Source: Pseudomonadales bacterium
GTDB lineage: Bacteria > Pseudomonadota > Gammaproteobacteria > Pseudomonadales > UBA7239
Direction: 5' to 3'
Assembly: GCA_046347205.1 (NCBI GenBank)
Contig: JAXMGN010000002.1
Location: forward strand, 670,224-734,223
DNA length: 64,000 bases
The notes under the pieces were generated by a model. The model saw only the letters and a program-made list of their open reading frames with translations, ran no database searches and was not told the origin of the DNA. Position 1 is the first letter of the stretch. Each line of letters starts with the position of its first letter. The translations under genes and the position numbers were made by a program. This document shows, in pieces, positions 2,562 through 10,705 of this stretch.

Positions 2562-2700
2562 TGGTTTCTCCTTTTTGTGCTCATTGTAGCGACCTAATGA
2601 TCCCGGACACAGCCTCATTGTTCCTCCAAATACCCCACATACAAACAAATGGGGGGGTAATTTGGAACAACGGCTAGATGCTATACATATTATTTCATTT

Positions 2701-2717
2701 ATGCCATATAATGGCAT
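2701..2717. promoter_or_regulatory. perfect 7-3-7 inverted repeat ATGCCAT-ATA-ATGGCAT containing a TATAAT box, candidate abiE promoter/operator
   Basis: Seen directly in the sequence, 26 nt upstream of the abiEi ATG. AbiEi antitoxins are known to autoregulate through inverted repeats in their promoter. Confidence 0.35.
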
Positions 2718-2742
2718 TTATCAAATATTTAATGTAGCTGAA

Positions 2743-3561
2743 ATGAGCAAAATTGCGGGTATAGGCAAAAGCAGCAGAATAAAGCTCAGCAAAGTGCTTG
2801 AGCGTTATCCTAGGCTTATTTCAGCCGCATCTGTGGCTGAGGTGCTTGGCGTGGCTCCCAGCGAGGCAAATCGTGTGCTCGCCCGTTGGAGCCAGTCTGG
2901 TTGGGTCAATCGGGTCAAGCGTGGCCTCTACTCTCCCGTGTCTCTGGATACTGGGGCATCCACCCTTGCGCTAGAGGAACCCTTTCTAGTGGCAGACACC
3001 ATCTACGGGCCAGGGTATGTAGGAGGATTCAGTGCCGTGAAGCACTGGGATCTCTCAGAGCAAATTATTGAAACTGTCTATTACTTCACCACTAGGCAAG
3101 TCATGGACAGAAACCCTATTCACGGATCTGTGCAATTCAAACTGAAAACCGTGAAAGCGGCGAAGATGTTTGGATTAAAAGCCATCTGGATAGGCAGCAA
3201 GAAGATCAATGTAAGCGATGCCACTAAAACTATCGTTGATATCCTCAATGATCCAAAATTAGTCGGCGGCATGAGTATTGTCTATGACATTTTCAAAGAG
3301 TACTGCGAATCAGAATATTGCGATTTCCAGAAGCTATTAGACTACTGCCACAAAATGGAAAACAAAACGATATTCAAACGCCTGGGCTTTATGATCGATA
3401 CGAAAATGGCCAATATCCCCAAAGAGCTAAACAGCCTAGAAAAATTAATTTCGACTGGATACTCAAACTTTGATCCGTTAATTAAAAAAAATCACATCAT
3501 TGAAAAGTGGAAGATAAAAGCGCCAGTTTCATGGGTAGAAGAATATGATAGAAAAAAATGA
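2743..3561 (+). CDS. abiEi: type IV toxin-antitoxin / abortive infection antitoxin AbiEi (transcriptional regulator)
   Basis: The N-terminal wHTH-like segment LISAASVAEVLGVAPSEANRVLARWSQSGWVNRVKRGLY and the overall ~270-aa size fit AbiEi. The gene overlaps the downstream AbiEii gene by 17 nt. The start was chosen at MSKIAG. Confidence 0.8.
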   Translation: MSKIAGIGKSSRIKLSKVLERYPRLISAASVAEVLGVAPSEANRVLARWSQSGWVNRVKRGLYSPVSLDTGASTLALEEPFLVADTIYGPGYVGGFSAVKHWDLSEQIIETVYYFTTRQVMDRNPIHGSVQFKLKTVKAAKMFGLKAIWIGSKKINVSDATKTIVDILNDPKLVGGMSIVYDIFKEYCESEYCDFQKLLDYCHKMENKTIFKRLGFMIDTKMANIPKELNSLEKLISTGYSNFDPLIKKNHIIEKWKIKAPVSWVEEYDRKK

Positions 3562-4927
3562 GATTCTGACAACAGCCGAAGAACTCGGCCTGAATCCTGA
3601 TACCGTAGAAAAAGACTACGTGCTGGGCTGGCTACTTCATGGCATCCACAACCATGCTGCGACAAAGGGATGGGCATTCAAAGGCGGAACGAGTTTAAAG
3701 AAATGTTTTTTTGAAACATTTCGATTTTCAGAAGACCTGGATTTCACCCTATCAGATAATGGCCAATTGGACGCCGATTTCCTTAAGTCAACCTTTATTG
3801 AAATCATTGAACAGCTATCAGAAGAAGTAGGCATTGAGTTTTTACCAGATGAATTCAGGTTTAAAATCATTGACAAGGGAAATGGAAATTATTCTTCTCA
3901 AGGAAAAATCACCTACAACGGGCCATTAAGAAGGGCACGCGGTGTAGCAACAATAAAATTGGACCTTACAACAGATGAAGTCCTGGTTCTAACTCCAGTT
4001 GTAAACCGCGTTCACCACCCCTATTCCGACGAACCCGCAAATGGAATACATGCAACGTGCTATGCATTTGAAGAAGTGGTTGCAGAAAAAATACGTGCTT
4101 TAGCGCAAAGGTTACGCCCAAGAGACGTTTATGACGTAGTTCACTTCTTCCGAAACAGGGACATGATTGGAAATCCAAAGCTGGTACTCAGTGTTCTGGA
4201 TAAGAAATGCCAGTTCAAAAATATCGGCATTCCGACCTTTGAAGATATAGAGCAGCATGCAAAATTGGATGAACTGGAACCACAATGGGAACACATGCTT
4301 GCGCACCAACTACCAGCGCTGCCACCTATAGAAACATTCTGGCAAGATTTACAGCCATTTTTTGACTGGCTTGAAGGTCATCTGGAAGTTGAACAAATCG
4401 AGCCCAGCTCGACAATTACAGGTGATGTCTTCCACGTCAGTAGATTTTCCAGATATGGAAATATGCAATCTGTTCTTCATCAAATTCAGTTTGGTGCCGC
4501 AAATAGAGTTTGCATAAAACTTACATACAGCGGGAAAGAGCGCACGGTTGAGCCACTGTCTTTTAGAATAGCAAGTACAGGCAATAGACTATTTTTTGGA
4601 TTTGAACGTGAAGCGGGCCATGTGAAAGCGTATACCATCTCTAATATACAGAGCGTTGCAGTCACAAATATTCCTTATACAGAACAGTACCCCGTTGAGA
4701 TCAGTGCAACAGGAAATATTTCAATGCCGCCTATACGCCGTGAATCGACAGGGCGAATTCATTCAACTGGCATTTCGAGAAGACTTACGCATAGTGCGGC
4801 ACATAAAATTCAATGCCCAGTATGTAACAAAGTTTTTACAAGAAAAAATCCGTCTGACACAGCACTTAACAAACACAAGAACTCATGGGGTGGAAACTGC
4901 ACTGGACGACGCGGGCATCGTATCTGA
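3545..4927 (+). CDS. abiEii: AbiEii/AbiGii-family nucleotidyltransferase toxin with an atypical ~180-aa C-terminal extension
   Basis: NTase motifs are present: FKGGTSLKKCF...RFSEDLDF and EKIRALAQRLRPRDVYDV (DUF1814/AbiEii signature). The protein is 460 aa, against about 250-300 aa as I recall for the family. The extension holds a WYL-like stretch and C424-x2-C427-x16-H444-x7-C452. Confidence 0.85.
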   Translation: MIEKNEILTTAEELGLNPDTVEKDYVLGWLLHGIHNHAATKGWAFKGGTSLKKCFFETFRFSEDLDFTLSDNGQLDADFLKSTFIEIIEQLSEEVGIEFLPDEFRFKIIDKGNGNYSSQGKITYNGPLRRARGVATIKLDLTTDEVLVLTPVVNRVHHPYSDEPANGIHATCYAFEEVVAEKIRALAQRLRPRDVYDVVHFFRNRDMIGNPKLVLSVLDKKCQFKNIGIPTFEDIEQHAKLDELEPQWEHMLAHQLPALPPIETFWQDLQPFFDWLEGHLEVEQIEPSSTITGDVFHVSRFSRYGNMQSVLHQIQFGAANRVCIKLTYSGKERTVEPLSFRIASTGNRLFFGFEREAGHVKAYTISNIQSVAVTNIPYTEQYPVEISATGNISMPPIRRESTGRIHSTGISRRLTHSAAHKIQCPVCNKVFTRKNPSDTALNKHKNSWGGNCTGRRGHRI

Positions 4928-5226
4928 AACATAAGCCGCCGAAACGCTAACGAAATGCACAGATATTCAATGGTGTAAAACAACCATTAACACCCGCAGG
5001 GGTTTTTGTCGTGCAAACACTTCACCCTGTCCACAGCAATGGCGATCAACAATATGAGGATGGTTGTCACGAAGGCTCTTGCATGGTTTTCAAACACCAA
5101 CATCCATAATTTTTATCGCTAAACTTTGTCACTCGCTAACCAGAAACCAATAGGTATTGATAATCTGACTTATCAACACCAACACAACAAAAACCGCTCA
5201 ATTAACGCACCTACAGGAAATTTATA

Positions 5227-6066
5227 ATGGCAAGTAAAGACAATGTTTACATGGGGCCGAATGAGCATGGAATGACCCCAAGAATGTACACCAGTGTTAA
5301 AGGAAAATATTACTATTTCTACGACCCCAATCAACTCATTAAGCATAATGACATTCAAGAAGCAAAGACACTTTTAAACGAAATAGGAATGAAAGATGAA
5401 TCATTTCTTTCTCTTCTTTACTTTATATGGAATTGGAAAAACGCTGAGTTTTTACAGGTAACAAAAGAAGATTACGAAGCAAGAATGCGATCTGCAGCAG
5501 ATCATGTTAAAAAAGCCTACAAAATTATATTAAAACATAATGTGCACAGCAAAATACCAAAACTTAGAGATGTTATTTCCTATGCCAACGCAAGAATTTG
5601 CAAAAAAGTAAATGAAGGAAACAGTAAAATAAAGGTAGATTTTTTTGAATTCAACGAAAATGACACATCTATTAACGCCAGTATTATTACCGTTATGGAA
5701 GCTATTGATAAATATTTTTCAGATTCAACGATTTCTGATTTTTGGCAATTAGAACATTTACGAATGCTTCAACCCGGTGACACAAGGAATGTTAGAAGCT
5801 ATGAAAAGGAAACCATAGTAGAGAAGAAAGAAAAAAAGGGCGGGGTTAAGGTTTGCGCCAAAAGATTAGTTATGGCGTGGATATACATACATTTAAAAAA
5901 CCTAGGGGAACATTATGTTTCTGGAGATAATAAAAACATAATTATCACAAAAATAGCATCTGCTCTGCTAGGAGAAGAAGTAAAACCCGGCGCTTTTTCC
6001 AGCATGTTTCCTGAACAAAGAGATGCTTATTACCTACGCGCCAAACCGGGAGAGGCAAAACTATAG
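5227..6066 (+). CDS. hypothetical protein (no recognisable domain)
   Basis: 279-aa ORF with AGGAAA 7 nt upstream of the ATG. It is AT-rich and Lys/Asn/Ile-rich, consistent with foreign origin. It follows a 300-nt non-coding leader. Confidence 0.6.
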   Translation: MASKDNVYMGPNEHGMTPRMYTSVKGKYYYFYDPNQLIKHNDIQEAKTLLNEIGMKDESFLSLLYFIWNWKNAEFLQVTKEDYEARMRSAADHVKKAYKIILKHNVHSKIPKLRDVISYANARICKKVNEGNSKIKVDFFEFNENDTSINASIITVMEAIDKYFSDSTISDFWQLEHLRMLQPGDTRNVRSYEKETIVEKKEKKGGVKVCAKRLVMAWIYIHLKNLGEHYVSGDNKNIIITKIASALLGEEVKPGAFSSMFPEQRDAYYLRAKPGEAKL

Positions 6067-6071
6067 TTAGC

Positions 6072-6104
6072 GGAGCTTGCCTTCTAAAGGTTGAGACAAG
6101 CTCC
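6072..6104. terminator. hairpin between convergent genes (GGAGCTTG ... CAAGCTCC)
   Basis: 8-bp perfect stem seen in the 48-nt gap between two convergent island genes. There is no good T-run on either strand. Confidence 0.35.
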
Positions 6105-6114
6105 CCTTTATCAG

Positions 6115-7041
6115 CTAGTCTTGAAATATATCAAGGCAGTTTACGCAATCACCAGCACCCTCCCAAATTGCAGTGGAATCAAAAACTTCCATAGTATAGT
6201 CCGCATTGAGAATATTGAAGTATTGCTCAGCCAGCCTACTATCGTGATTTCTATAGTGTGATAAAGCACCAACCAGCCCACGAATACGTATGCAGTCGTA
6301 AAAGCCCGGCGCAAAACGCTTGTCATGCACAAACTGATTCGAGTAAACCATCAATCCAGAGTAAGGGTTATGTATTAGGACATCTTTCGCATTCTTAATA
6401 CCAATAACAGGCTCTTTTTTAAAGCACGCCAGCTTCTGAACTTTCATGCGAATCTCAAAGCGGGAAACCTGATTACCACCCCCTGACTTGTTATATACCA
6501 CTAAATATTGATTTGATTTTTCAGACCCGTGTTTTTGTGATAACAGACCATATTCACCATCAAAGGTTAAGCCCTTTAGATCTGAACCATCATGAAACAC
6601 AACCACATGATCCGGAATGCAGCCATACACATCAAACGTTGCATCCATTCTTGTGATATTTGCTCTCTCCCAGATTAAGCTGTAATCATCTTTCAGTAGA
6701 TACTTTAGAACGTTGACAAGTAGTTTACTGTCTTTAGTTGTTATCTTTGCAGGATTGTATTCCAGAGAGAATCCATTGGCCTGCATGTTGGGTTTATTGC
6801 CGTAACTAATTGTTGCCAGTGATTTCTTATCGTTGTACAGCAATATTATGTTGCCATATACGCTACCCTTCCTATTGGTTCTGACAAACTGAAACTTTTT
6901 ACTCTGAAATGCTTTCTCAGCACGATCAACAATGCAGCCAATGCCAGTTAAAGATATAGGTAGCGTAAACGCTATTTTATCCAGAAAGATATTGGTAACA
7001 CTCAAAGATTGCTGTTGCTGGATCACAAGTGGATTTTTCAT
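6115..7041 (-). CDS. putative replication initiation factor (Rep_trans-like)
   Basis: The motif pattern ITRMDATFDV ... YLVVYNKS ... SRFEIRMK resembles the RxDxxxD / YdK / RxE blocks of Rep_trans-family initiators. The gene lies next to a helicase gene in an integrative element. Confidence 0.5.
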   Translation of the reverse strand: MKNPLVIQQQQSLSVTNIFLDKIAFTLPISLTGIGCIVDRAEKAFQSKKFQFVRTNRKGSVYGNIILLYNDKKSLATISYGNKPNMQANGFSLEYNPAKITTKDSKLLVNVLKYLLKDDYSLIWERANITRMDATFDVYGCIPDHVVVFHDGSDLKGLTFDGEYGLLSQKHGSEKSNQYLVVYNKSGGGNQVSRFEIRMKVQKLACFKKEPVIGIKNAKDVLIHNPYSGLMVYSNQFVHDKRFAPGFYDCIRIRGLVGALSHYRNHDSRLAEQYFNILNADYTMEVFDSTAIWEGAGDCVNCLDIFQD

Positions 7042-7148
7042 AATCTTCTCTCACCTAATGTGATTGAATTAAATTGCAGAAAGTAGCTACAACCTGCTAT
7101 TAGCCCAACAGGTTATTGACAGCCCCTTCTATTGCATGCGCTGCTGCT

Positions 7149-7188
7149 AAAACTGGAGCCAGTGGTAAGCCCCCATTGGCTCCAGTTT
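7149..7188 (-). terminator. rho-independent terminator after the helicase gene
   Basis: 12-bp perfect stem AAACTGGAGCCA / TGGCTCCAGTTT, followed on the minus strand by TTTTA. It starts 8 nt downstream of the stop of the 7196-8971 CDS. Confidence 0.5.
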
Positions 7189-7195
7189 GGGCGAC

Positions 7196-8971
7196 TTATA
7201 GGCTGATCTTTAGCTTGTAGAAGGAATGCCACTTGCGGCTACCATTAGGCCTTAATCTGGTGGCCAACCTGTTATCGCTGTTTGTACTCAGCATCCCTAT
7301 TAAATTTAATGTTTTGTAGAACGACGTTTTGCTCGTTGGAAGCCCTACCTCTTGAAGCCAATCAAGTCCAAAGAGTTCACTTGGCTTAAAATTAGCTTCC
7401 AGCAGTATTGTTCCGTCTTCTGCACTGACAATGCCCGCGCACTTCTTACGTCTAGACTTGGATTTATTCTTACATTTTTCAAAGTATGTCTTTTCATCAA
7501 CATCAAAAGACAGCCGATTCAGTTCAACAAGACACCTAACCCTGTTTGCTATTAAATTTTTGAAAGAATGCCCCTGTGCGATACCATCCTGCATGGATGC
7601 TAGTGTCACCATATAATCCAATGCGCTATGACGGATGGCACTACTTCCAGTCTCATCTATACACTTTTTCTTTATAAGATAATCCATATATACATGAAGC
7701 GAAAACAGAAGGACAGCATATTGCTCTGCCGTTCGGTTGTGTTGATCATCGCTTAACTTTTCAGATATAGAATTGCAATACTCGTCATAATTGCCAATCC
7801 ATAACTTCTCGATACTTTCGATATTTCTAATAATGTACGCAACAAACAGTCGCATTGACTTAGCTAGATCCCCACTCTTAGCCAGCACACGAAATGGCGA
7901 TATATCACTTTTCTTAATTCCTGTAGAGTCACAAAATATTACTCTTTTCAACAAAGATTCTTGCACAACCTCTGGCGGATGCTCACCTGTTACTACCAAT
8001 ACAGGGTAATAATCCTGCGGGCTTGTACCGACAACATCTCTGATATTCGTGTTTGCAATTCCTCGAATAACCTTCGCGGCAATATCATTGTTAGTTTTCA
8101 AATTTCGCTTGTCTTTATCATACACAAAGTCATCTAATACAATTAGCGTGCCGCTAACAGACCTTATGGATTTTAAAATAGAAGCCAGACTTGATTCCCA
8201 ACTCAAGAACGCGTTTTTTCTGTGCCGCTTCTGACCATAGCAAGCCTGCATTACTCGAGCTGTTTCGCTCTTGAATGTACCAGAGGGGCCAACAAGGTAT
8301 AGCGTTGCATAAGGTAAGTCTTGAATCACAGTAAGAGCCGATCTAAGTATATAAAGCAAGACCGTAAAACCCCACATCTGATTCTCTTTCCCACCAACAT
8401 CCAATAGCCTTAATAGTGTTGGCACATAATATTTCTTGGTATTTTTATCTCCTATCTTAGCTCCAAAATCGTATCCTTTTCGAAATCCATCGAAAATCCC
8501 TTTTGATGATGCCGAAATATCTTTCCCCCCTATTGCCCCACTTTCATGAATAAATGCCACCTGCTGGCCAACTTTTGCATATCCGGGATTCTTGTAAACT
8601 GTGACCCTATTTGATGGATCAACAGTGTTCTTCAAATAGTCCATCACCAATTTTTTTTCGTGTGGGCTTTCATAATAAATTTCAGCTCTTGTTCCAAAAG
8701 CTGCAAAAGCCCAGTCTAACTTTTTATAATCCTTGGCAGCTATTTCAGGCTGCCCTATAAACTGGCCATACTCATCAAGAATTTCAATAGCAAAGTATGT
8801 TTCAATCTCTTTTTCAGCGTCTACAATTGATCTTTCCTCAGCAATCCTAGGAAAAAAATTCGTTAGCCTCTTATTAGTAACGCCATTCTTACTGTCTCCG
8901 AACAAGTAAAGCCCATCCGGACCCTTGCTAACATATAACGACTCTTTTTTCACATTTGTAACCATGCTCAT
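7196..8971 (-). CDS. DUF927-type P-loop NTPase, putative mobile-element replicative helicase
   Basis: Walker A is LVGPSGTFKSE and Walker B is TLIVLDDF. The block SWESSLASILKSIRSVSGTLIVLDDF and the N-terminal region match the layout of DUF927 helicase-like proteins found in islands and plasmids. Confidence 0.6.
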   Translation of the reverse strand: MSMVTNVKKESLYVSKGPDGLYLFGDSKNGVTNKRLTNFFPRIAEERSIVDAEKEIETYFAIEILDEYGQFIGQPEIAAKDYKKLDWAFAAFGTRAEIYYESPHEKKLVMDYLKNTVDPSNRVTVYKNPGYAKVGQQVAFIHESGAIGGKDISASSKGIFDGFRKGYDFGAKIGDKNTKKYYVPTLLRLLDVGGKENQMWGFTVLLYILRSALTVIQDLPYATLYLVGPSGTFKSETARVMQACYGQKRHRKNAFLSWESSLASILKSIRSVSGTLIVLDDFVYDKDKRNLKTNNDIAAKVIRGIANTNIRDVVGTSPQDYYPVLVVTGEHPPEVVQESLLKRVIFCDSTGIKKSDISPFRVLAKSGDLAKSMRLFVAYIIRNIESIEKLWIGNYDEYCNSISEKLSDDQHNRTAEQYAVLLFSLHVYMDYLIKKKCIDETGSSAIRHSALDYMVTLASMQDGIAQGHSFKNLIANRVRCLVELNRLSFDVDEKTYFEKCKNKSKSRRKKCAGIVSAEDGTILLEANFKPSELFGLDWLQEVGLPTSKTSFYKTLNLIGMLSTNSDNRLATRLRPNGSRKWHSFYKLKISL

Positions 8972-9179
8972 CTCCCATACGCCAGTTCTATACCAGCCTG
9001 CTGATTAAGGTTGAGGGGGGGCAATACTTAGCCCCTCAAGCGCCACCTTAGCCACCTTGATTCAGCAACTCCCCAATTGTTAAAAATTGAAATAAATTCT
9101 CATTTTTAGCAATTGATGCCAGCCATAAACTGAATTGCAAGAATCCCAACAGCGATATATTGGCTTGGGGTTTTCATAC

Positions 9180-9554
9180 ATGGGCTCATCTCAACAACTA
9201 GCATTCTTACCTCGGGTTATCCGAGTTAAAGATGCCCATCGCTATCTAGGCATGGATAAGACGACATTTGCGCGTGAAATCCGTCCCTACCTGACATTGA
9301 TTAAGATTACGAATAAAAGCCGCGGATTTGAGCGAGTTGATATTGATCACGCATTTGATGTATACATATGTGGTCGATGCTGTCCGCCGAAAAAGCCTCT
9401 GCCAATCGGAGACAACATATGCGAAAGCAAACAGGTATCAACTTTGACACCTCAAGTAACTGCTGGATCATCGACAAAAAAGTTAAAGGAAAACGCATTC
9501 GCGAACGCACTCAGTACAGCAAAGAGCAGCGCGAAGAAGCGGAACGCCGACTAA
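9180..9554 (+). CDS. excisionase/AlpA-like helix-turn-helix protein (C-terminus overlaps int)
   Basis: The segment VIRVKDAHRYLGMDKTTFAREIRPYLTLIKITNKSRGFERVDIDHAF fits the HTH_17/excisionase pattern. The ORF runs 136 nt into the integrase gene in another frame, so its true 3' end is uncertain. Confidence 0.45.
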   Translation: MGSSQQLAFLPRVIRVKDAHRYLGMDKTTFAREIRPYLTLIKITNKSRGFERVDIDHAFDVYICGRCCPPKKPLPIGDNICESKQVSTLTPQVTAGSSTKKLKENAFANALSTAKSSAKKRNAD

Positions 9555-10540
9555 CCTTTCTGTCACAGCAAGTGTACGAACAGGAAACCTATGGACTTAG
9601 ATCCAAACATACCTTTAGAGAAGCAGCAGTGAAATACTGCGTTGAAAATAAACACCTGCGGACTATTGCGTGGATCGAAGAACATTTAGGAAGACTGGAT
9701 CCGTACCTTGGGGATTACGAACTCAGCCAGATACACCGTGATTGCCTTGGACTGCAAAAACTGGTGAATGACCTACGTGCGGCAAACCGGAAACGGAAAA
9801 CCATCAACAGTTATCTGGAACTGGTGCGCCGGATATTAAATAAAGCTGCCTATGAGTGGCGTGACGAGAAGAACTTGAGTTGGCTTGAAAAGGCACCGCG
9901 AATACGCTTACTGGATACCAGCGATTCTCGCGCGCCACAGCCTATCAGCTGGGAGGATCAGCGAAGGTTACTGCCTGCCCTCGCCAACCATTTGGCAGAC
10001 ATTGCCCTGTTCATTATCAATACGGGGGCACGATCTGAAGAAGTACGGTTGCTACAGTGGGAATGGGAAGTAAAAGTGCCGCAAGGCGTGGCCTTCATCA
10101 TTCCAGACTCGGTGGTGAAGGGAAACACAGTTGGTGAAAGGATGCTGGTGTGCAATGAAGTGGCCACTTCTGTGGTCAACCATCAACGCGGCAAGCATGC
10201 TCAACACGTGTTTACTTTCACACCCAGAGGTGAAGGCTCGGAACCACGCCCTATCAGCTACCTGAATAACAGCGGGTGGCGGACAGGCTGTGAAAGAGCT
10301 GGATTACCAAGGCTGCATATCCACGATTTGCGACACACATTTGGCTATCGCTTACGGCAAGCTGGTGTGGACAAACAAACGCGTGGTGAGCTACTGGGAC
10401 ATGCTGCAAGTGACATGACGGAGCACTATTCCATGGCTGATCTGAAGCACTTGTTTCAGCAGGTTAACCTGATCACAGTGCCAATTCAGGCTGACGCTGT
10501 GGTGACGTTGAAACGCAGAAAGATGGCTTTGGTAGGATGA
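9419..10540 (+). CDS. int: tyrosine-type site-specific integrase
   Basis: Catalytic C-terminal motifs are present: HIHDLRHTFGYRLRQAG ... LLGHAASDMTEHY (R-H-R-Y family). The N-terminal arm-type domain reads GINFDTSSNCWIIDKKVKGKRIR. The gene lies adjacent to a tRNA gene. Confidence 0.9.
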   Translation: MRKQTGINFDTSSNCWIIDKKVKGKRIRERTQYSKEQREEAERRLTFLSQQVYEQETYGLRSKHTFREAAVKYCVENKHLRTIAWIEEHLGRLDPYLGDYELSQIHRDCLGLQKLVNDLRAANRKRKTINSYLELVRRILNKAAYEWRDEKNLSWLEKAPRIRLLDTSDSRAPQPISWEDQRRLLPALANHLADIALFIINTGARSEEVRLLQWEWEVKVPQGVAFIIPDSVVKGNTVGERMLVCNEVATSVVNHQRGKHAQHVFTFTPRGEGSEPRPISYLNNSGWRTGCERAGLPRLHIHDLRHTFGYRLRQAGVDKQTRGELLGHAASDMTEHYSMADLKHLFQQVNLITVPIQADAVVTLKRRKMALVG

Positions 10541-10589
10541 CTGCAGTGACTACTTGGAAAAATGTCACCCAATTCTCCCACAGGTCAGA

Positions 10590-10621
10590 AACAAAAAAGG
10601 CCTACATTTCTGTAAGCCTTT
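10590..10621 (-). terminator. rho-independent terminator downstream of tRNA-Lys (can also serve int on the plus strand)
   Basis: The minus strand reads AAAGGCTTACA-GAAA-TGTAGGCCTTT followed by TTTTTT. This is an 11-bp stem with one G-U pair and a GAAA loop. Confidence 0.5.
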
Positions 10622-10629
10622 GATTTATA

Positions 10630-10705
10630 TGGTGGGTCGTGATGGATTCGAACCATCGACCAATTGGTTAAAAGCCAACTGCTCTACCGACTGAGCTAAC
10701 GACCC
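10630..10705 (-). tRNA. tRNA-Lys (anticodon UUU)
   Basis: The reverse complement GGGTCGTTAGCTCAGTCGGTAGAGCAGTTGGCTTTTAACCAATTGGTCGATGGTTCGAATCCATCACGACCCACCA folds as a cloverleaf with a CTTTTAA anticodon loop. It is nearly identical to E. coli tRNA-Lys as I recall it, and CCA is encoded. Confidence 0.95.

Follow-up and report, generated by a model that had tools for sequence, protein, structure and literature searches.

We analysed a stretch of 64,000 nucleotides (the window) from a Pseudomonadales bacterium (GenBank assembly GCA_046347205.1, contig JAXMGN010000002.1, positions 670,224 to 734,223 of the forward strand), and focused on an AbiE (AbiEi/AbiEii) toxin-antitoxin or abortive-infection operon that is located on a small tRNA-Lys-associated integrative island. 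The toxin gene of this operon encodes an AbiEii nucleotidyltransferase core followed by approximately 195 further residues, counted from the Pfam limit of the core at residue 266. The original prediction had described this extension as an uninterrupted continuation of the AbiEii reading frame to residue 460, made up of a WYL-like barrel and a zinc-finger-like tail. The open reading frame (ORF), which begins with MIEKNEIL and closes with GHRI and a TGA stop codon, indeed contains no stop or frame break, and residues 280-460 together with the stop correspond to 4382..4927. Only one other ORF was present in the interval (4656..4934, 92 amino acids), and this ORF is out-of-frame and unsupported. 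The same 460-residue protein, originating from a Cellvibrionales metagenome-assembled genome, is deposited at NCBI as MBK8677055.1 with the title 'nucleotidyl transferase AbiEii/AbiGii toxin family protein', and it was found on 37 contigs. In a search with the full-length protein, over 120 clusters of homologues (56-85% identity) showed the same unbroken fused layout. The full-length AlphaFold2 model, based on an alignment of 56 sequences, had a mean predicted local distance difference test (pLDDT) score of 85 and a predicted template modelling (pTM) score of 0.77. The toxin is almost certainly a single polypeptide with three modules, namely a nucleotidyltransferase core, a WYL domain on a flexible linker and a CCHC finger on a second, disordered linker.

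The core, which belongs to the DUF1814 family (COG2253), matched Pfam PF08843 with 132.8 bits against a cut-off of 22.5 (E = 2.4e-38), and the Pfam scan of the window protein gave no domain after residue 266. When the full-length model was compared to the PDB with Foldseek, MenT4 was the first match (E = 2.1e-8) and TglT/MenT3 the next (E = 2.2e-7), with target TM-scores of 0.57-0.65 for these toxins, and they were followed by WYL proteins. In the alignment of the window protein with 55 close homologues (A3, 56 sequences), K46-G47-G48-T49, D64, D66, D140, K182 and R193-D194-x-Y196-D197 were invariant in 56/56. These residues were assigned to the catalytic motifs of the family, namely GG[ST], [DE]x[DE], one more acidic residue (the third) and K...RxD-YD, on the basis of the known family members and of the alignment with MenT4. 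As all of the motif residues are invariant, the core is probably an active nucleotidyltransferase. In the AlphaFold model the core runs into a helix (residues 262-276), and the remainder of residues 267-306 is coil, with pLDDT below 50 at 304-306.

The region that follows this linker was modelled as a helix (307-319) and five strands within residues 322-377, all with pLDDT above 90, and the same elements were obtained, also with pLDDT above 90, when the extension (residues 299-460) was modelled alone. The peptide NRVCIKLTYSGKERTVEPLSFRIASTGNRLFFGFEREAGHVKAYTISNIQSV, in which the strand pattern of a WYL barrel had been recognised, was found at residues 320-371. Foldseek comparison of the 299-460 model with the PDB returned WYL proteins for all of the first 28 matches, including PafBC, DriD, BrxR and CapW. 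These superposed on the WYL region with a probability of 1.00 and a root mean square deviation of 1.8-2.1 Å over 75-82 columns, and the Hfq and Lsm proteins ranked below them. Phage proteins annotated as 'WYL domain-containing' were matched in a viral library. Scans against Pfam, NCBIfam and PHROGs gave nothing significant for the extension of the window protein itself. Divergent relatives scored above the Pfam WYL cut-off of 21.8 bits (P0251, 35.2; P0287, 28.3; P0217, 28.2), and Pfam WYL was also detected at E<=1 in 19 of the 56 A3 sequences. A profile of the WYL region of the family (A7) gave six matches in the PDB at E<=10, all of them WYL proteins, with an E-value of 7.3e-6 for PafBC, and a homologue with 64% identity is labelled 'WYL domain-containing protein' in UniRef. 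Residues from about 307 to 378 are a WYL domain, as the original prediction had suggested from the strand pattern. A divergent branch of the family (P0190, P0217, P0251 and others) was seen to have the same architecture with a much longer Pro/Ala-rich linker, and its WYL signature R-x-Y-R-V-D-R-I is more canonical than that of the clade to which the window protein belongs.

The C-terminal tail was modelled as a compact unit of approximately 40 residues with short strands and no helix (pLDDT 82-97), connected by a linker (residues 399-418) of which both the sequence and the length differ among homologues. The cysteine and histidine residues that had been proposed as a zinc-finger-like pattern were found exactly at positions 424, 427, 444 and 452. 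In a divergent alignment (A5, 29-59% identity) C424, C427, F431, H444, C452 and G454 were invariant; no homologue that has the tail deviates at any of the four putative metal ligands, and the spacing C-x2-C-x15/16-H-x7-C-x-G was constant in 147 sequences. The tail is predicted to bind zinc on the basis of these conserved ligands. Residues 398-460 contain 14 Lys/Arg and 2 Asp/Glu. The pattern C-x2-C-x3-F ... L-x2-H is shared with the beta-beta-alpha fingers of the C2H2 and BED types; classical C2H2 fingers, however, have 12 residues between the second cysteine and the histidine, whereas the tail has 15-16 and its fourth ligand is a cysteine located 8 residues after the histidine. A family profile matched C2H2 fingers weakly (Aart, E = 1.2e-5, summed over repeats), and the matches to zf-C2H2 (E = 0.11), to NCBIfam CxxC_VVA0879 (E = 0.008) and, for a homologue, to zf-BED (E = 0.002) were all sub-threshold. 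No Pfam zinc-finger model was above threshold for the tail, and the Foldseek results contained no match to it, the module being too small to show up. Because the family matches were weak or sub-threshold, we use the label CCHC zinc-finger-like module. Homologues without this module (short forms) have a length of 395-413 amino acids, and no tail-like sequence was found downstream of the stop codon in the short-form genome loci that were examined.

Each of the residues R181, Y196, R204, R208, R211 and R214 of PafB is needed for the binding of single-stranded DNA (ssDNA) (PMC11804915). Their counterparts in the window protein are R333, L349, A357, K361, T364 and N367, respectively, according to a low-scoring hidden Markov model alignment with the Mycobacterium smegmatis PafB that is anchored on E-P and G and in which the numbering agrees with PMC11804915; T364 and N367 therefore stand at the positions of R211 and R214, where mutation abolishes ssDNA binding. 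In 28 diverse family members the share of basic residues was 86% at position 333, 100% at 361, 71% at 364 and 75% at 367. In the close clade (A3) R333 and R341 were invariant and R/K348, R355 and K361 nearly so, position 364 was Ser or Thr, position 367 was mostly Lys, and the position of L349, which corresponds to PafB Y196, was Leu or Ile in 55/56 sequences. This conservation indicates that the domain is under selection and has a basic surface. The binding mode need not match that of PafB, DriD or CapW.

The distribution of the extension was determined by an exhaustive HMMER search with an extension profile (A2) against 1.84 billion representatives, with clusters defined at 50% identity. The number of matched clusters was 937 at E<=1e-3, falling to 434 at E<=1e-10 and to 76 at E<=1e-30. 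The clusters come from many phyla, and the extension is conserved to a degree far above what chance would give. In a Pfam scan of 146 of the top 150 representatives, WYL (E<=1e-3) was found in 107 and AbiEii in 59, and the remainder were fragments. No enzymatic domain other than AbiEii was detected by Pfam in these 146 representatives, among which the WYL/finger module occurs only with AbiEii. GTDB species representatives were scanned with one narrow peptide pattern, which yielded 21 loci in Cellvibrionales, Porticoccus, Halioglobus and other Gammaproteobacteria, and in Desulfobacterota, Bdellovibrionota, Oligoflexia, Nitrospinales, Calditrichota and an anammox planctomycete.

Searches with the extension only gave at first mainly proteins of 124-284 amino acids that start at an internal methionine on short contigs. 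Database entries of this kind, in which the extension appears as a stand-alone protein of 124-250 amino acids, would speak for an assembly artefact, in which a separate downstream gene had been merged with abiEii through a missed stop or a frameshift. A stand-alone WYL-finger gene family was considered and rejected, as the N-termini of its supposed members either align with part of a full-length protein (its linker or core) or begin at an internal methionine on a short contig. The 210-212-residue 'extension-only' proteins turned out to be fragments or pseudogenes, and the divergent stand-alone entries (P0251, P0257 and others) were likewise rejected as an independent gene, judging from their sequences. 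One of the extension-only entries (P0007) is located on a contig of 4.6 Mb (locus L001), where it stands after an AbiEii fragment of 190 amino acids. The region 5251-6639 of this locus contains one in-frame TGA in place of the Arg codon of the conserved RPRD motif, and because of this single in-frame TGA the copy was identified as a pseudogene that arose from the fused gene by a nonsense mutation. Other related loci, too, contain copies that are disrupted or have an internal deletion, and the fused gene itself was found in the genome loci of 15 or more taxa. An artefact is extremely improbable, and it is refuted by the continuous ORF, by the presence of the same protein on 37 contigs and by the more than 120 independent fused clusters; the missed stop or frameshift that had been named as a possible flaw of the original prediction is not there.

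The toxin gene was damaged by nonsense mutation or frameshift in several related loci, among them L001, L004, L013 and L021, in which the antitoxin gene was intact, and such damage was frequent among the genome representatives. In a further locus (L022, 4085-4324) a remnant of 79 amino acids was found, in which a 'TVE' microhomology marks the junction between the first 21 residues and the WYL domain, again with an intact abiEi. Together with P0017 and P0223 this remnant represents three independent in-frame internal deletions of the core, with the first 21-90 residues fused directly to the WYL domain. Either the toxin has been inactivated in these three and they are remnants of it or, where the contig is a short metagenome one, they are chimeras of the assembly. 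Toxin genes with a nonsense mutation, frameshift or core deletion beside a retained abiEi are as would be expected for a gene with a toxic product, which these sequences hint at.

The antitoxin AbiEi, a winged helix-turn-helix protein of the COG5340 type, matched PADLOC model PDLC02271 over its full length (E = 9.7e-76), and the 3' end of its gene overlaps the start of the toxin gene by 17 nucleotides. An abiEi homologue (44-62% identical) was located directly upstream of the toxin gene in 20/20 related loci for which upstream sequence was available (19 genome loci and L001). The imperfect palindrome that precedes abiEi contains two tandem repeats of 19 nucleotides (2686-2723) and could be the AbiEi operator, a candidate put forward because autoregulation by AbiEi is known. 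Promoter and terminator scans around the operon gave fewer matches than shuffled controls and were hence uninformative. The coordinates of all features are given in the table.

Features of the AbiE operon, its toxin and the surrounding island (positions and strand refer to the window; residues refer to the toxin)
Feature	Position	Strand	Residues or size	Basis or details
Imperfect palindrome	2680..2738	.	28-nt arms	71% complementary; directly upstream of abiEi start
abiEi antitoxin gene	2743..3561	+	272 aa	From ATG at 2743; Pfam AbiEi_4, E 5.2e-7
Complete abiEii-WYL-zinc-finger toxin gene	3545..4927	+	460 aa + TGA	ORF listing
AbiEii/DUF1814 nucleotidyltransferase core	3641..4342	+	33-266	Pfam PF08843
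Conserved helix (FWxDLxPFFxWL), then variable low-confidence linker	4343..4462	+	267-306	Alignment A3
WYL domain	4463..4678	+	307-378	N-terminal helix and five-stranded Sm-like barrel
Conserved post-WYL peptide	4679..4738	+	379-398	PYTE(K/Q)YPVEIS-TG-ISMPPIRR; E385 and I386 invariant
Basic Ser/Thr/Arg-rich disordered linker	4739..4798	+	399-418	pLDDT 30-48
CCHC zinc-finger-like tail	4799..4924	+	419-460	C424, C427, H444, C452
Tyrosine integrase gene	9368..10540	+		Pfam Phage_integrase; PHROG 1 integrase, E 2e-37
tRNA-Lys(UUU)	10630..10705	-		ARAGORN; probable island integration site

The GC content was 33-44% over about 3.0-9.5 kb and 50-58% past 9.5 kb. The low-GC stretch (about 2700-10705) closes with the integrase gene and tRNA-Lys(UUU), next to queC/queE. 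Exact 12-16-mers and 22-mers with a tolerance of 3 mismatches gave no repeat of the 3' end of the tRNA-Lys, so that this search for att repeats does not define where the island begins on the left. Three ORFs are located between the AbiE operon and the integrase gene, encoding proteins of 279 (5227-6066, +), 308 (6115-7041, -) and 591 amino acids (7196-8971, -), and none of them gave a match in Pfam, PHROGs, PADLOC or NCBIfam, or in a tblastn search of phage genomes. By eye, the 591-residue protein contains the P-loop-like motifs 'GPSGTFKS' and 'LIVLDDF', which makes it a possible replication ATPase, encoded by a small element of an integrative or satellite-like kind. An ORF of 139 amino acids (9135-9554, +), which overlaps with the beginning of the integrase ORF, gave a match to phrog_13517 (function unknown) with E = 5e-13. 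An excisionase or regulator may be encoded here; alternatively, translation of the integrase may in fact start further downstream.

The operon was compared to known systems. The AbiEi/AbiEii pairs of Streptococcus agalactiae and Lactococcus are likewise two-gene operons in which a winged helix-turn-helix AbiEi gene overlaps that of a DUF1814/PF08843 toxin, and they share the catalytic motifs, including the GGT loop, a probable phospho-acceptor; PADLOC assigns both proteins to AbiE. AbiE has been classified among the toxin-antitoxin systems of type IV and was lately reclassified as type VII. The characterised AbiEii proteins consist of the DUF1814 core of approximately 250-300 residues alone, whereas the toxin of the window has the WYL and CCHC modules in addition. 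For the N-terminal 270 residues, Foldseek ranked MenT3 (TglT, Rv1045) and MenT4 (Rv2826c) of Mycobacterium tuberculosis highest in structural similarity (E 2e-8 to 9e-7); their GGTS...RFSxDLDF motif aligned in sequence, and the toxin would be expected to add nucleotides to the tRNA 3'-CCA end as they do. However, the identity to these toxins is only 14-20%, they have neither a WYL domain nor a zinc finger, and the antitoxins that they are paired with come from other families. BrxR, CapW, DriD and PafBC, the WYL domains of which superpose on that of the toxin, share with it the R-x-V-E-P strand and the basic residue that corresponds to PafB R208. These regulators have a winged helix-turn-helix and a WCX domain, whereas the toxin has neither of them and carries the nucleotidyltransferase core at its N-terminus; lacking both, it is not a transcription factor.

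The original prediction had regarded the architecture as unusual, and this did not hold, given the 937 clusters in many phyla, the PADLOC model, the UniRef name and a published mention of the same domain combination. Most PADLOC AbiEii models describe the core only, as Pfam does, but model PDLC02317 of PADLOC-DB (2023), with 396 positions, matched toxin residues 1-394 (E = 1.7e-143) and therefore spans both the core and the WYL domain, as they occur in the short form. Fusions of WYL to enzymes such as Cas3, helicases and nucleases were listed by Makarova et al. 2014, and among them is an 'AbiGII-like nucleotidyltransferase (DUF1814)' (PMC4012209). This mention is one line without analysis, and it describes neither the CCHC finger nor the existence of a long and a short form, nor that the toxin is strictly paired with AbiEi (PMC4012209). 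Our literature search found no other paper on the AbiEii-WYL fusion and no functional study of AbiEii with WYL or of the C-terminal domains of MenT/AbiEii toxins. The extension is thus common and partly annotated already, as a large subfamily with a PADLOC model and a UniRef label; in Pfam, the window protein itself is still without its WYL domain. The locus is a further member of a catalogued and functionally unstudied AbiEii subfamily, and the domain combination itself would not surprise a specialist. The CCHC tail and the long/short dimorphism appear to be undescribed, and they are a modest elaboration.

DUF1814 toxins, including MenT1, MenT3, MenT4 and the AbiEii of S. agalactiae, add nucleotides to the tRNA 3'-CCA end and thereby block translation, and the binding of AbiEi or MenA leads to autophosphorylation of the toxin at a Thr/Ser near the active site; the activating triggers of AbiEii/MenT toxins remain elusive (bioRxiv 10.64898/2026.01.19.700257). 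In DriD, CapW and PafBC, ssDNA bound by the WYL domain is the activating signal (PMC9186387, PMC11662680, PMC11804915), and WYL domains fused to enzymes, DUF1814 included, have been predicted to sense ligands (PMC4012209). By analogy with these relatives, the core would stop translation through nucleotide addition to tRNA 3'-CCA ends, and AbiEi would hold the toxin off by binding and by inducing autophosphorylation of the GGT(49)S loop. The WYL domain and the finger would be a tethered module that couples the binding of single-stranded nucleic acid to the activity of the toxin, in such a way that single-stranded nucleic acid arising from phage replication or DNA damage would be bound by the WYL/finger module and the inhibition of the toxin would be relieved. 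We favour this explanation as a whole, an AbiE operon with a three-module toxin gated by nucleic acid, although we consider it plausible rather than probable. Its parts differ in strength: the extension is likely to bind single-stranded nucleic acid, and it may perhaps gate the toxin, with ligand binding relieving the AbiEi-dependent inhibition, which we propose tentatively. That the extension is a built-in infection sensor, in which phage ssDNA or RNA would free the nucleotidyltransferase from AbiEi binding or autophosphorylation, is the boldest form of the proposal and an unlikely one.

Several observations weigh against this explanation. The window protein gave no match to Pfam WYL (PF13280), even at E<=1, its W-Y-L triplet is R-L-F, and it keeps only two of the six ssDNA-binding positions of PafB (R333 and K361). 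In CapW a WCX domain takes part in ssDNA binding, and the toxin has no such domain. The tail was present in 83 of 120 close clusters and the other 37 stop after PPIRR; on a crude tree (unweighted pair group method with arithmetic mean) its presence required at least 16 changes by Fitch count, a figure to be read qualitatively, and since the tail is missing from these clusters and patchy on the tree it is not essential. The WYL domain is connected by a long linker that varies and is disordered, which fits loose tethering as well as it does allostery. Furthermore, the WYL domain fused to Pif1 helicase and the WYL1 protein that acts with Cas13d serve in substrate handling and not in signal sensing.

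In an alternative explanation the WYL domain and the basic finger are a tethered RNA-binding clamp that increases the affinity for, or changes, the tRNA, RNA or ssDNA 3' end that is modified, without any sensing. The WYL fold is Sm/Hfq-like, and Hfq and Lsm proteins were indeed among the lower Foldseek matches; the tail has a strongly basic character, the linkers have the flexibility and the variability that would be expected of a tethered binding module, and WYL domains aid substrate binding in the Pif1 and WYL1-Cas13d cases. The non-canonical residues at the ssDNA-binding positions would fit another ligand such as RNA, and specificity modules are plausible because the MenT toxins differ in tRNA specificity (tRNA-Ser for MenT3). 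However, tRNA is bound and modified by AbiEii and MenT toxins that have no extension at all, no binding of poly-U RNA by CapW was seen, and the recurrent absence of the zinc tail means that part of the module is dispensable. We consider such a clamp rather unlikely. Gating and substrate targeting nevertheless stay close, because the linkers are disordered, the tail is optional and the ligand residues are non-canonical. It may also be asked whether the WYL domain, with or without the tail, has a role at the protein level, where it would mediate oligomerisation, dock AbiEi or keep the active site autoinhibited, and has no nucleic-acid ligand. The loss of four of the six PafB positions, the location of the WYL domains of regulators at dimer interfaces, the strict co-occurrence with the cognate AbiEi and the pTM of the full-length model, which is compatible with a defined arrangement of the domains, are consistent with this. 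It is distinctly unlikely in view of the arginine and lysine residues that the close clade conserves in the WYL domain (R333, R341, R/K348, R355 and K361), the basic character of four ligand positions in the wider family and the resemblance of the tail to nucleic-acid-binding fingers.

To our knowledge, the WYL domain is the part that detects ssDNA in every regulator studied. A toxin subfamily with a WYL domain of its own is a convenient test of control by a ligand against redirection of the substrate, and its long and short forms, of which only the former have the zinc finger, are ready-made deletion variants provided by nature. The subfamily thereby offers a practical route to the question of how AbiE/MenT toxins are switched on during phage infection. 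If the extension merely adds affinity for tRNA, the result would be incremental. If the sensor reading is true, it would provide the first defined molecular trigger for a toxin of the AbiE/MenT type, and the toxin would sense its own activating signal without a separate regulator.

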